This document shows positions 1,630 through 6,347 of a DNA stretch of 63,196 nt, in pieces; positions within the stretch are counted from its first letter, which is position 1, and each line of letters begins with the position of its first letter. This stretch comes from a bacterium (GTDB lineage Bacteria > Bacteroidota > Bacteroidia > Bacteroidales > UBA932). The notes under the pieces were generated by a model. The model searched no databases. It saw only the letters and a program-made list of their open reading frames with translations, and was not told the DNA's origin. A program made the position numbers and the translations under genes. The stretch covers positions 1 through 63,196 of the forward strand of contig CAVFXO010000032.1 in NCBI GenBank assembly GCA_963626825.1, written 5' to 3'.

Positions 1630-3270
1630 ATGAAACTGTTGCTAATATCCATGCTGCTTGCCAGCACCATCAACATTATCCCGGCGCCGCTCAGCGTAAG
1701 GGAGGACAGCGGAACCTTCAAACTGAAGGGATCATCCATCAACTGCGACTCCAGGATGGGCGAGACAGCCTATCAGGCAATCAAGGAATTCTCCAGCCAG
1801 CTCACCCTGTGCGCAGGGCAGATCTACCCTGTGGGCAGACCGTCAAGGCTCGACCAGAGCGTTCGCGATGGGAACGTGAAGGGCTTCGTGTTCTATGTGG
1901 ATCCTACCCTGGTGGAAGAAGCCTATACCATAAACATCACCAAAAAGAGCGTGATAGTGGGAGCGTCGTCGGACAACGGGTTCCTCTACGCGATCCAGAG
2001 CATCAAGCAGATGCTTCCGGTGGCGATCTACGGAAATGCTGCCGCCGAGGATCAGAAATGGGAGCTGCCGTGCTGCGAGATAAAGGACAAACCGCGCTTC
2101 GGCTACAGAGGAGTGGAGCTGGACTGCTGCCGCCATTTCTTCAGTGTGGACGAGGTGAAGAAGGTGCTCGATATGATGGCTACGCTCAAGCTAAACCGTC
2201 TGCACTGGCATCTGACCGAGGATCAGGGCTGGAGGGCTGAGATCAAGTCCTATCCGCGCCTTACCGAAGTGGGAGCATACAGGAGCGGCACCATGGTGGG
2301 CTATTATGACGGTCCGTCGGACAACATCCGCTACGGCGGCTACTATACTCAGGAGCAGATGAAGGAAGTCGTGGCTTACGCCGGCAAACTTGGCATAGAG
2401 GTCATCCCTGAAGTGGATCTTCCGGGCCATATGGTAGCGGCGCTGGCTTCTTATCCTGAGCTGGGATGCTTCGGCGGCCCTTACGAGGTGTGGTACAGAT
2501 GGGGCGTGTCTCCGGATGTGCTTTGCCCTGGCAAGGAAGTCACTTTCCAGTTCCTGGAGGGCGTGCTGGGCGAACTCTGCGAGATCTTCCCGAGCGAATA
2601 TTTCCACATAGGCGGTGACGAGTGTCCGAAGACCAATTGGGAGAAATGTCCTGACTGTCAGGCCAGAATCAAGGAGCTTGGCCTGAAGGGCGACGAGCAT
2701 GCGAGCGCTGAACAGAGGCTTCAGAACTACGTGACCTCACGCGTGCAGAAGTTCCTCGAGAGCAAGGGCAAGAAGATCATAGGCTGGGACGAGATTCTGG
2801 AGGGCGATCTGGACAAGGGCGCCACCGTGATGTCTTGGAGAGGCACGAGCGGCGGCATCAAGGCTTCGAATCTCGGGTTCGACGTCATAATGACCCCTAC
2901 CGACTATTGTTATTTCGATTACTGCCAAAGCCCTCTCAAACGGGAAAGCGACGAGCCTATCTGCGCATTCTGGGGCGACCTGACCTTCAGGAAAGTATAT
3001 TCGTTCAACCCTACCGACGGTCTGTCACCGGAAGCTGCGAAGCACATCCTCGGGGCCCAGGCCAATGTGTGGACGGAGTACATCCCTTCGAACGAGCAGC
3101 TCGAGTATATGCTTATGCCGCGTCTGTTCGCGCTGTGCGAAGTTCAGTGGTGCGAACCTGCCAACAAGCACTACGAGCCGTTCTGCGAAAGGGTTAAGAG
3201 CTGGGGATTCCAGATGCTTGACCTGCGCGGATTCAATTACCGCGACAAGCCGAATTTCACGGAGGAGTAG
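1630..3270 (+). CDS. Beta-N-acetylhexosaminidase, GH20
   Basis: D-x-PRF-x-YRG, LHWHLTEDQGWR and catalytic HIGGDE motifs; N-terminal signal. Confidence 0.95.
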   Translation: MKLLLISMLLASTINIIPAPLSVREDSGTFKLKGSSINCDSRMGETAYQAIKEFSSQLTLCAGQIYPVGRPSRLDQSVRDGNVKGFVFYVDPTLVEEAYTINITKKSVIVGASSDNGFLYAIQSIKQMLPVAIYGNAAAEDQKWELPCCEIKDKPRFGYRGVELDCCRHFFSVDEVKKVLDMMATLKLNRLHWHLTEDQGWRAEIKSYPRLTEVGAYRSGTMVGYYDGPSDNIRYGGYYTQEQMKEVVAYAGKLGIEVIPEVDLPGHMVAALASYPELGCFGGPYEVWYRWGVSPDVLCPGKEVTFQFLEGVLGELCEIFPSEYFHIGGDECPKTNWEKCPDCQARIKELGLKGDEHASAEQRLQNYVTSRVQKFLESKGKKIIGWDEILEGDLDKGATVMSWRGTSGGIKASNLGFDVIMTPTDYCYFDYCQSPLKRESDEPICAFWGDLTFRKVYSFNPTDGLSPEAAKHILGAQANVWTEYIPSNEQLEYMLMPRLFALCEVQWCEPANKHYEPFCERVKSWGFQMLDLRGFNYRDKPNFTEE

Positions 3271-3274
3271 ATAT

Positions 3275-3352
3275 AATCAGAAAGGGCCGCATCATCTCGA
3301 CGCTGCCCTTTCCTTCTAACCTAAAATTTAACCTATGAAAAAACTATTCGGT
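3275..3352 (-). ncRNA. Candidate sigma54-dependent small RNA (about 78 nt) ending in a hairpin at 3280-3312
   Basis: Lies between a -24/-12 motif (3364-3378, minus) and the hairpin GAAAGGGC...GCCCTTTC, whose inner stem has a G-U pair only on the minus strand. No ORF. Confidence 0.55.
3280..3312. terminator. Hairpin terminator, probably bidirectional (GH20 and the candidate sRNA)
   Basis: GAAAGGGC/GCCCTTTC stem 9 nt after the GH20 stop. Confidence 0.7.
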
Positions 3353-3363
3353 TAAGATTTATT

Positions 3364-3378
3364 ACAATCCCCGTGCCA
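3364..3378 (-). promoter_or_regulatory. Sigma54 (-24/-12) promoter motif
   Basis: Minus strand TGGCACG-GGGA-TTGT against the consensus TGGCACG-N4-TTGC; one mismatch, at -12. Confidence 0.6.
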
Positions 3379-3448: not shown

Positions 3449-4780
3449 ATGTATAACATCGCCATCATAGGGGCCGGACCCGCCGGTTACGTGGCCGCGC
3501 AGAGGGCCGCTGAAGCTGGGCTTAAAGTTATCCTGTTCGAAGACAGAGAATTGGGAGGAGTGTGCCTGAACGAGGGCTGCATCCCCACCAAGACGCTTCT
3601 TTACAGCGCCAAGCTCTACACACAGAGCCGCGAAAGCGAGAAATTCGGCGTGCAGAATGACAACACCTCCTTCGATTATGGCAAAATCCTGTCACGAAAG
3701 GACAAGGTGACCCGGAAACTGGTCGGTGCCATCCGCGTCTCGATGCGCAATCTGGGCGTGGAAGTAGTGAAAGGTCACGCCGTCATAGAGGGCGGTGTAA
3801 AGGGAAACTTTACAATTTCCTCTGACGGGCAGTCCTTCAGCGCAGAGAATCTGCTTCTCTGCACCGGAAGCCACGCGTTCACCCCGAAGCTCGATTGGCT
3901 CGAGGACGACAGGATAATGACCAGTACCGAGGCTCTGGCACTGCAGGAAGTGCCGGCGAGCCTGGCTATAATAGGGGGCGGCGTGATAGGCATAGAATTC
4001 GCGAGCCTTTTCCACGCTCTCGGCTCCGACGTGACCGTGTTTGAGCTGACGGGCGAAATTCTGGGCCCGTTCGATGCCGACATGGCAGGGAGCCTGCGCG
4101 AAACGCTCACTAGGCAGGGCATAAAGTTCTTCCTGAACGGCGACGAGGCGGGCAAGGAGGAGGTTCTGAAAGCGGAGAAGATACTTCTGTGCATAGGACG
4201 CAAGCCTAACGTCGAGGGCTTCGGAATGGAGTCTGTCGGACTGCAGGCCAATGCGCGCGGGGCGGTCGAGGTCAATGAGAATATGCGCACCGCAGTTCCG
4301 GGAATCTACGCTGCAGGCGACATCACGGGCCAATATATGCTCGCGCATTGTGCCAGCAGGGAGGCCGAAGTGGCGGTAAACGACATTCTCGGGCTGCCGG
4401 ACCGTATGGATTATAGGGCTGTGCCGAGCGCGGTGTACTGCAAGCCGGAAATCGCCTCCACGGGACTTACCGAGAAGCAGGCCATAAGACAGGGCACTGA
4501 ATACGAGGTGCACAAGCTTCCGCTCACCTATTCCGGCCGGTTCGTGGCCGAGACGGAGCGTGAAAACGGAATGTGCAAGATAATATGCGAAAAAGGCGGC
4601 GGGAAAGTGCTCGGGGTGCAGATCCTGGGCGGACCTGCCTCCGAGATGATATCCCAGGGGTGTCTGGCGATAGAAAACGGTATGACGCTGGGGGCGCTCA
4701 GGAAAGTTATCTTCCCTCACCCGAGCGTATCGGAGATAATCAAAGAAACCAGCTGGTCAGCTGAAGTGGAGTCGAAGTAA
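3449..4780 (+). CDS. lpdA: Dihydrolipoyl dehydrogenase
   Basis: GAGPAG FAD motif, redox-active GGVCLNEGCIPTK, C-terminal HPSVSE. Start trimmed to ATG 3449. Confidence 0.95.
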   Translation: MYNIAIIGAGPAGYVAAQRAAEAGLKVILFEDRELGGVCLNEGCIPTKTLLYSAKLYTQSRESEKFGVQNDNTSFDYGKILSRKDKVTRKLVGAIRVSMRNLGVEVVKGHAVIEGGVKGNFTISSDGQSFSAENLLLCTGSHAFTPKLDWLEDDRIMTSTEALALQEVPASLAIIGGGVIGIEFASLFHALGSDVTVFELTGEILGPFDADMAGSLRETLTRQGIKFFLNGDEAGKEEVLKAEKILLCIGRKPNVEGFGMESVGLQANARGAVEVNENMRTAVPGIYAAGDITGQYMLAHCASREAEVAVNDILGLPDRMDYRAVPSAVYCKPEIASTGLTEKQAIRQGTEYEVHKLPLTYSGRFVAETERENGMCKIICEKGGGKVLGVQILGGPASEMISQGCLAIENGMTLGALRKVIFPHPSVSEIIKETSWSAEVESK

Positions 4781-5679
4781 TCTTCGACTCTTTCTTTTTC
4801 CAGGGCTTCGCGGATGGATGTAAAGTCATACTTTACTCCTTCAAGACGTGAAGCAAGAATATTCGCGCTTTCCGCTCCCAGAAAATCACCCGAAAAGACG
4901 ACGGAGCGTATCGTTCCGCTCTGCACATCCAGCCACGCATCCACCTGTCCGCAGGGAAGATGGGCCTGACGATGAAGCGGGGCCTGGGTACGCTTTCCGT
5001 AAAGCCAGCCCACAGAAGAGAATTTGTCGCGGTTCAGCCTGTCTATTTCAGCCCTCTGGGCTTCGCTCAGGCAATATTCGGGCATAGGAGGAAAGGTGGA
5101 GAGAAGGAGCCGTTCAAAGTCCAGCACGGACCGGGTCTGGGGGAGCCAGTCCCGGAGATTAGCCACAGCGCTGCGCACGGACTTCACGCCCTTGCGGGAA
5201 AGCTTGCCCTGAGGAGTGTCCAGCGCGTGCTGGAGGGTGTCCAGGTCCACATCATAGAGCAGCGTGCCGTGAACGAGCCACCTGTCACATTCCATACGGC
5301 GGGCATAGCCGGAGACCTTGCGACCTGCCACGAAGATGTCGTTCCGCCCGGTCTTTTCCGCCGGAACACCGAGCTGCCGGAGCGCCCCGACTATGGGGTC
5401 CACGCTGACGTTTTCTCCTATGAATGAATAGTTAAGATTGTTAAGGTCGTGGTATACGGCCCCGCCCCCGGTGGTGCGGCGGGCGAGGGCGATGCCATTT
5501 TGAGCCAAGTAATCCAGGTTCACCTCGGTGTAGGCGTCCTGATTCTCGCCTATGATTACAGACGGACGGTTACGCCAAAGATAAAACCAGCTTTCGCCCC
5601 CGGGCAGGTTTTTAAGTGCCCAGGATTCGAAAGCCATATTGTAACAGGGGTCAACGGAGCTGACCTGGATGTATCTCAT
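4717..5679 (-). CDS. lplA: Lipoate-protein ligase A
   Basis: RRTTGGGAVYHD, GRNDI..GRKVSG and HGTLL motifs. Confidence 0.93.
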   Translation of the reverse strand: MRYIQVSSVDPCYNMAFESWALKNLPGGESWFYLWRNRPSVIIGENQDAYTEVNLDYLAQNGIALARRTTGGGAVYHDLNNLNYSFIGENVSVDPIVGALRQLGVPAEKTGRNDIFVAGRKVSGYARRMECDRWLVHGTLLYDVDLDTLQHALDTPQGKLSRKGVKSVRSAVANLRDWLPQTRSVLDFERLLLSTFPPMPEYCLSEAQRAEIDRLNRDKFSSVGWLYGKRTQAPLHRQAHLPCGQVDAWLDVQSGTIRSVVFSGDFLGAESANILASRLEGVKYDFTSIREALEKERVEDYFDSTSADQLVSLIISDTLG

Positions 5680-6347
5680 TATTCAGCCACTTTGACAGCC
5701 ACGATCTTGACCGGGGTGACAGGACAGTCCCTGGCGTCGGTCTGAACGGAAGCGATCTTGTCTATCACGTCAAGTCCGGACACTGCCTGGCCGAAGACTG
5801 TGTATTGGCCGTCAAGCTGGGCACAGGTCCTCTCGTCCTGCACGATGTAGAACTGGGAGCCGCTGCTCTCGCGAAGAGGATTGGCACGGTCTCCGCGACG
5901 CGCGGTAGCGAGCGCACCCTTCAGATGCCTGTGGTTAGGCAGTATCTCGGCAGGAACGGTGTATCCCGGGCCGCCGGTGCCCCAAGCGGATTTCTGGTCA
6001 GGGTCCTTCGACAGCGGGTCGCCGGCCTGTATCATAAAGCCATTGATGACTCTGTGGAAGAGGATGCCGTCATAGAAGCCTTCCAGGGCCAGACGCTCGA
6101 AGTTGTCACGGGTCTTCGGGGTGTCAGCGAAAAGTTTCACGCGTATAGTTCCGAGCGTGGTGATGATATCGAATTCGGGCTCGTCAGGAAGGGCTGCGAT
6201 CTTCTCGGCGAGTTTTTTCTCCTTCTCGATGATGGCGGTGGAGTCAACCGGCTCCGCCTCGGCCTGCCTGGCAGCGTTCTTGTGTCCGCCACCGCAGGAT
6301 GTGAAAAACATTGCGCACATAAGGGTAATGGGGATTAACTTTTTCAT
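5679..6347 (-). CDS. Cyclophilin-type peptidyl-prolyl isomerase, lipoprotein
   Basis: FHRVINGFMIQAGDP, SSGSQFYI and LDGQYTVFG motifs. The true start MKKL..FTSC (lipobox) is at 6347, with an ATGA overlap with the upstream gene. Confidence 0.93.
   Translation of the reverse strand: MKKLIPITLMCAMFFTSCGGGHKNAARQAEAEPVDSTAIIEKEKKLAEKIAALPDEPEFDIITTLGTIRVKLFADTPKTRDNFERLALEGFYDGILFHRVINGFMIQAGDPLSKDPDQKSAWGTGGPGYTVPAEILPNHRHLKGALATARRGDRANPLRESSGSQFYIVQDERTCAQLDGQYTVFGQAVSGLDVIDKIASVQTDARDCPVTPVKIVAVKVAE

Follow-up and report, generated by a model that had tools for sequence, protein, structure and literature searches.

A conserved FopS-related small RNA gene with a sigma54-type promoter in Bacteroidales, and its predicted pairing with the start regions of exported proteins

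Background

In the 63,196-nucleotide stretch of Bacteroidales DNA analyzed here (henceforth the window), a GH20 gene (1630-3270, plus strand) and a gene for an lpdA-type pyridine nucleotide-disulphide oxidoreductase (3449-4780, plus strand) flank a short intergenic region, whose minus strand carries a -24/-12 motif of the sigma54 type with no open reading frame downstream of it. What does this promoter transcribe, and on what might the product act? The initial annotation proposed a small RNA pairing in trans with the start-codon regions of envelope mRNAs and akin to the FopS RNAs of Bacteroides thetaiotaomicron, a bacterium that has rpoN. The explanation that we favor, with a probability of roughly two in three, is that the region encodes a trans-acting RNA of about 75 nt of the FopS/GibS kind, which is likely to be transcribed by sigma54 within a stress regulon and to repress the start regions of exported-protein genes. 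No account of a sigma54-promoted R1 RNA, or of such RNAs in this genus, was found in the literature outside of subscription papers.

Results and discussion

Organization of the predicted RNA gene

The boxes, core, repeats and hairpin listed in the initial annotation all lie where it had placed them when the sequence is read directly. On the minus strand the -24 box TGGCAC (3378-3373) is followed, after a spacer of 5 bases, by the -12 box TTGTA (3367-3363) and a short A/T-rich spacer. Transcription is predicted to start within 3349-3352, likely at the G at 3349, as judged from the spacing in homologues, and the conserved sequence from 3349 onwards reads GAATAGTTTTTTCATAGGTTAAATTTTAGGTTAG. The predicted RNA body of about 71-78 nt (3275-3349, minus strand) is delimited by a match to the full Rfam FopS model (3274-3344) and by our own covariance model. 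Its 5' end is formed by the R1-type seed GAAUAGUUUUUUCAUA (3334-3349), which is complementary to U-AUG-AAA-AAA-CUA-UUC, encoding M-K-K-L-F. The first of two UAGGUUA repeats (3335-3329) overlaps the seed, while the second (3323-3317) takes the place that an AGGUUA box has in the FopS consensus. These are followed by a predicted intrinsic-terminator hairpin (3313-3279), possibly common here to the RNA gene and the convergent GH20 gene, with a folding energy of -22.3 kcal/mol on the minus strand (z -5.0) as against -17.2 on the plus strand. The U-tail is poor in the window copy, for which a simple terminator scan called no terminator and a sigma70-type scan no promoter.

The usual upstream neighbor in the genus is a gene for a cyclophilin-like lipoprotein (a name given by reading of the sequence), homologues of which lie directly upstream of 24 of the 40 type I copies (defined below) with long flanks. 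In the window, two genes stand between this one (5679-6347, minus strand) and the RNA gene: a lipoate-ligase-like gene (4717-5679, minus strand) and the divergent lpdA. As lpdA adjoins the RNA gene also in three close relatives and at locus L299, the presence of these two genes beside it suggests a lineage-specific insertion or rearrangement.

Conservation, covariation and strand of the RNA gene

The core is matched by BLASTN in 34/36 genomes of the same genus, in many of them up to the -24 box, and an exact core pattern is found at 105 places in 56 of the 60 genus genomes that are at least 90% complete, with no match to a reversed-pattern control; the core is further present in 90/120 genomes across the family, and the covariance model, which had been suggested in the initial annotation, gives hits in 41/151 genomes of the order, though counts across these genomes are not independent because the genomes are kin. 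Records with the core are titled mostly Ca. Cryptobacteroides or Bacteroidales, and also Coprenecus, Egerieisoma, Alistipes/Rikenellaceae and one Flavobacteriales. Apparently outside the family, the sigma54 box, R1 core and terminator occur together at L088 (with the Flavobacteriales record title) and at L093. Several records titled Eggerthellaceae, Acutalibacteraceae or Firmicutes (L074, L084, L104, L112, L119) carry the Bacteroidales RNA gene, and these are likely to represent mislabelling or binning contamination. In a scan of viral sequences four stretches fit a loose promoter-plus-seed pattern, with the second box present in none of the four.

In an alignment made up of the window copy and 49 further type I copies, hand-picked from 103 references, columns 1-40, which include the near-invariant seed and both invariant repeats, hardly change and are unpaired (there are no consensus pairs in columns 1-46), whereas the sequence of the hairpin varies freely. 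Twelve of its 13 pairs nevertheless show double-sided changes, 97.5% of the hairpin cells are paired against 36-50% in slid controls, and the covariation score was reached by 0/500 shuffles. The 103 homologues also display a clear strand asymmetry: the proposed strand folds better in 83 and the other in 19; G-U pairs make up 212/1841 of the pairs on the former and 59/1614 on the latter; and the U-richer tail belongs to the proposed strand in 81 homologues and to the opposite one in 8, with 14 ties. The unit of -24/-12 motif, core and hairpin is conserved as an arrangement among the homologues. Conservation, covariation and strand asymmetry together support a predicted minus-strand RNA of the trans-acting type, and on this comparative evidence the RNA gene is almost certainly real.

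These data also bear on whether the plus strand might instead be the one that matters, coding for a short peptide, M-K-K-L-F, or preserving the start of a decayed gene, in place of an RNA gene, with the hairpin merely terminating GH20. Such a reading might draw on the plus-strand sequence ATG AAA AAA CTA TTC GGT TAA, which stands behind an A/T-rich leader, and on the beginning of the hairpin 9 nt past the GH20 stop. Yet across 61 copies this frame ranges from 6 to at least 40 codons, with neither length nor sequence conserved beyond the core, and the mini-ORF was rejected on these grounds. GH20 is the downstream neighbor in only 2/40 long loci, and the promoter, G-U pairs and U-tracts all indicate the minus strand, making this alternative extremely unlikely.

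The sigma54-type promoter and its alternatives

To characterize the promoter we scanned a collection of species genomes with TGGCAY plus the core, a query from which the -12 box was absent. This yielded at least 124 stretches from 11 of the 64 parts of the collection (about 770 are estimated overall); from 125 matches, 120 of them distinct, the 104 with a second GGTT box were kept and 16 set aside. All 104 kept homologues have T at -15, G at -13 and C, T or A at -12, whereas the -12 box is found in 3/16 of the set-aside matches and at 83/1855 (4.5%) TGGCAY sites of the window's own genome. The window reads TTGT here in place of the canonical TTGC, a T that recurs at this position in 25/104 homologues. 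In 96/104 homologues the distance from the T of TGGCAC to the base that opens the conserved block is 28-29 nt, a spacing that holds across three core types of different length. In sigmaA-type copies (see below) the element TAnnTTTG precedes the very same base by 4-5 nt. Since the sigma54 spacing and the sigmaA element both point to it, this base is the likely transcription start.

The string TGGCACG-N4-TTG occurs once in the 1.48-Mb assembly, at the 3378 site. A matrix built from the homologue promoters, with three close kin left out of the training, ranks the window site second in the genome and first outside of our own ORF calls. The initial annotation had made its proposal depend on rpoN, which is present in the genome, as are two PF00158 activators (enhancer-binding proteins). 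One of these (L160:1264-2412, minus strand; G000:C11) combines receiver and AAA+ domains with no HTH hit and lies beside a gene that reads as lptB-like; it is a candidate enhancer-independent activator. The second (L161) has AAA+ and HTH domains and precedes lptE. A k-mer count in 102 upstream regions, mostly consisting of the coding DNA of neighbors, found no conserved upstream activator motif. Taken together, the RNA gene is very probably sigma54-driven.

To follow this promoter independently of its sequence, we inspected 103 of the 105 exact-pattern places in the genus genomes in a promoter-blind census. They fall into type I (CAUAGG or CAUAGA, as in the window RNA) and type II (CAUAGU). 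Among the 61 type I copies, 43 have only the sigma54 box, 3 have both promoter types, 11 only the sigmaA type and 4 neither. The sigma54 box, at a fixed distance to the core, is hence present in 46/61 type I and 0/42 type II copies, while 31 type II copies have a strict sigmaA element.

These counts allow an alternative to be weighed, in which the RNA derives mainly from the transcript of the upstream gene, in the manner of 3'-UTR-derived RNAs, or from a sigmaA promoter, and the sigma54 box is a minor element or a roadblock that represses as a closed complex. The upstream gene is indeed co-directional in 35/40 long loci, often ending within about 100 nt of the box, a strict TAnnTTTG is found at 14/61 type I copies, and no enhancer was detected. 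In the window and in three close relatives, however, the upstream gene is divergent, and therefore no read-through can make the RNA there; no TAnnTTTG (sigmaABfr-type) element was found before the window copy; and the spacing from box to RNA 5' end is exact across the three core types. We consider this alternative quite unlikely, and hold to transcription from the sigma54-type promoter.

Paralogues and promoter switching

Most genomes of the genus have both paralogue types, type II being nearly as common as type I, with 1-4 copies per genome by exact pattern and 2 in the 85% complete assembly of the window. Tandem R1-type RNA genes 150-300 bp apart are seen in several genomes (L022, L114, L185, L194, G168:C143). 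The initial annotation had suggested a search for paralogous TGGCACG-N4-TTG units; the assembly holds no second one. Its sole paralogue (C40:36250-36322, plus strand), of type II, has the sigmaA-type promoter TATATTTG and lies directly upstream of an apparent tRNA gene. Through a sigmaA-type paralogue of this kind, the same targets are predicted to receive a second input.

In the family's other genera the box is present in 27/30 tool-picked loci, including 13/13 of type II, and in the three remaining loci the second box, too, is missing by eye. From this, sigma54 wiring would seem to be the family's ancestral state, from which there were switches to sigmaA. Outside the family, the scan of the order found the box in a single genome (G112, with three copies), the rest being of the sigmaA type or unassigned; about 18 loci did not parse with the pattern used. 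Three type I genes (L034, L306, L339) have a sigma54 box and an overlapping TAnnTTTG aimed at the same start, and these are possible intermediates of promoter switching. If sigmaA-type copies had followed a loss of the sigma factor, rpoN would be expected to be absent alongside them; it is kept in 34/36 genomes, and this co-loss test thus lends no support. The sigma54 box is missing from 15/61 type I copies despite the retention of rpoN, and sigma54 input is thus dispensable in some lineages.

Relationship to known RNAs

The proposed kinship with FopS (RF04319) is borne out in both directions: the window RNA matches the full length of the FopS model, at 25.5 bits (E 0.19), which is below the gathering threshold of 56, and a model built from type I copies alone retrieves genes whose own RF04319 scores, 69.8 and 78.2 bits, are above threshold. 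Fifteen promoter-typed relatives score at most 36.9 bits on the FopS model, with no listed match for several. The FopS RNAs of B. thetaiotaomicron share with the window RNA the length of about 70 nt, an unpaired 5' part with a UUUUUCAU seed, the second AGGUUA box, a single 3' terminator hairpin, the lack of R2 and the existence of paralogues. They differ in promoter, which is sigmaABfr (TAnnTTTG) in FopS and sigma54-type in the window RNA (the C40:36250 paralogue sides with FopS here), and in copy number, with 12-15 per genome as against 1-4. The -24/-12 box was likewise found in 0/3 Segatella FopS loci.

GibS (RF04182; PMC7366714) resembles the window RNA in its R1 seed, in start-codon pairing, which is predicted for the window RNA, and, according to the main text of that paper, in a promoter that is not of the sigmaA type. 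It is distinguished by its 145 nt, an R2 seed and extra hairpins, and the GibS model gave no match to the window RNA at E up to 10. The supplement of the same paper assigns the GibS promoter to PM1 and the main text to PM2. The idea that PM2 is a sigma54 box was rejected, since the box is absent from 14/14 of the best Bacteroidaceae GibS-model loci. Most of these loci (L344-L357) are preceded by a GTGAACA-N16-GTT-like motif, which is probably the published PM2 and looks ECF-like rather than sigma54-like.

Rfp36 of Flavobacterium psychrophilum is another Bacteroidota small RNA with a putative sigma54 promoter, but it measures 202 nt, its sequence as supplied in PMC9723704 contains no R1 seed, and it is unrelated to the window RNA. 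A search for the R1 seed among the independent RNAs of F. psychrophilum gave one internal TTTTCATAG in a 519-nt RNA and no R1 unit.

The UAGGUUA repeats

The initial annotation had interpreted the UAGG repeats as a possible binding site for an RRM protein. In B. thetaiotaomicron such a protein, RbpB, binds the 5' part of FopS and antagonizes these RNAs (PMC11697453). The window's genus differs in this respect: of its 60 near-complete genomes a single one gave an RRM_1 hit, the control B. thetaiotaomicron being positive, and the 85% complete genome of the window itself gave none. RRM-protein binding is therefore not supported as a general feature, and the invariance of the repeats needs another explanation.

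An alternative reading would be that the RNA is chiefly a decoy, with the two repeats titrating an RNA-binding protein (RRM or other) and the start-codon complementarity being secondary. In its favor, neither repeat varies, both stay unpaired in the consensus fold with no demonstrated pairing partner, and the RbpB precedent for FopS points the same way. This is countered by the near-absence of RRM_1 from the genus and by the anti-AUG seed, which is equally invariant and is ordered so as to fit the starts of exported genes. We regard a decoy as very unlikely, and return to the seed as the likely active element of the predicted repressor RNA.

Predicted targets of the seed

Using our own heuristics for gene starts and signal peptides, ATGAAAAA opens 74/299 predicted exported genes and 15/854 others, in keeping with the earlier claim that the seed is antisense to AUG-AAA-AAA starts. 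With 44 inner-membrane calls excluded, ATG followed by six purines opens 119/299 predicted exported genes versus 54/810 others, and the U-run of the seed can pair with these six purines by A-U and G-U. When CAU is anchored on AUG, the pairing on the coding side with exported genes is equalled by 1/300 seed shuffles, whereas that of the upstream AACCU with the UTR side is equalled by 34/300 and is not significant. A ranking of unanchored duplexes, with 21 exported genes in the top 50 compared to 6-24 for 40 shuffles (3/40 at least as high as the real seed), is only modestly specific. Lys/Arg-rich starts are normal in signal peptides, and therefore complementarity alone is no proof of targeting. 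The proposed mechanism would accordingly lean by analogy on the experiments with FopS and GibS, notably the finding that FopS-10 blocks susC translation via pairing with the start region (PMC11697453).

That precedent raises the question of whether the window RNA has a narrow, FopS-like job, in which a few SusC/PUL mRNAs are repressed upon a nutrient or two-component signal rather than upon general folding or envelope stress. The FopS targets described in PMC11697453 are SusC/PUL leaders. Five of the eight SusC-like genes in the present genome start with ATG plus six purines, their median duplex energy is -13.4 versus -10.5 for the rest (p 0.007, n=8), and one of the two activators has a receiver domain. 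Against this, the fit of the seed extends to about 40% of the whole predicted exported set, well beyond SusC, no clear complement of the second repeat was found in the SusC leaders (the lowest p among six motifs being 0.049, n=8), and the same promoter box stands before chaperone and protease genes, as described below. The narrow job is rather doubtful, and a broader repression of exported proteins is favored.

The sigma54 regulon and a model for RNA function

By the same rule as in the promoter-blind census, a sigma54 box lies upstream of 37 of the 1153 called genes. These include lon, dnaK, grpE, htpG and clpB (5/5 of those found), degP, a surA-like gene and hsp20; the box rule was set after some chaperone promoters had been seen, so that neither this chaperone count nor its p-value is blind. 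A possible skp gene has no sigma54 box, and a motif search of the 85% complete assembly did not reveal groEL/groES. The boxed set matches the promoters with sigma54 motifs mapped by 5'-end sequencing in F. psychrophilum (PMC9723704) and those of a motif-based sigma54 survey (PMC12316311).

Under the favored model, protein-folding or envelope stress would activate sigma54 via one of the two enhancer-binding proteins encoded in the genome. The RNA would start at about 3349 and end at the hairpin, as the conservation of both suggests. Its CAU would then pair with AUG, and the run of six U with the Lys/Arg codons, made of purines only, at the beginning of Bacteroidota signal peptides. Since this run reads Lys/Arg codons by both A-U and G-U pairs, one seed would read the mRNAs of many exported proteins. 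The pairing itself is inferred from the FopS and GibS experiments. By blocking initiation, the RNA would lighten the burden of export and folding at the same time as sigma54 raises DegP, SurA, DnaK, Lon and ClpB, and the window RNA would act independently of an RbpB-type RRM protein.

Such a role has counterparts elsewhere. MicA, RybB and MicL of enterobacteria are sigmaE-dependent small RNAs that form the repressor arm of a stress regulon inducing DegP and SurA. The FoxI and FoxJ RNAs of Fusobacterium also depend on sigmaE, according to PMC13750123. If the model is right, all of these would play the same part as the window RNA, which differs in being under sigma54 and in having a seed generic for signal-peptide codons, and no sequence relation to them is expected.

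Conclusion

Descriptions of FopS have so far been confined to Bacteroidaceae, where it is under the control of the housekeeping sigma factor and goes together with RbpB. The same seed architecture is near-universal in a large family of uncultured gut and rumen bacteria, where it is probably wired to sigma54, in genomes almost all of them devoid of an RRM protein. Its paralogues are cleanly split between two sigma factors, a division by sigma type for which the 14 FopS copies were examined in the FopS paper (PMC11697453), with a negative outcome. We would tentatively entertain a wider view, which as a whole is possible but far from assured: that sigma54 of Bacteroidales is a heat-shock/envelope sigma factor with this RNA as its repressor arm, a chaperone-free "signal-peptide reader" with a U-run that decodes Lys/Arg codons in any signal peptide and so throttles export traffic as a whole class, and that the sigma54 form is ancestral in this family, its paralogues having been repeatedly re-wired to sigmaA, with FopS as a sigmaA-wired, amplified offshoot. 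The sigma54 factor of Bacteroidota, tied so far to chaperones by motif mapping, gains with this RNA a candidate small-RNA arm comparable to the sigmaE RNAs of enterobacteria.
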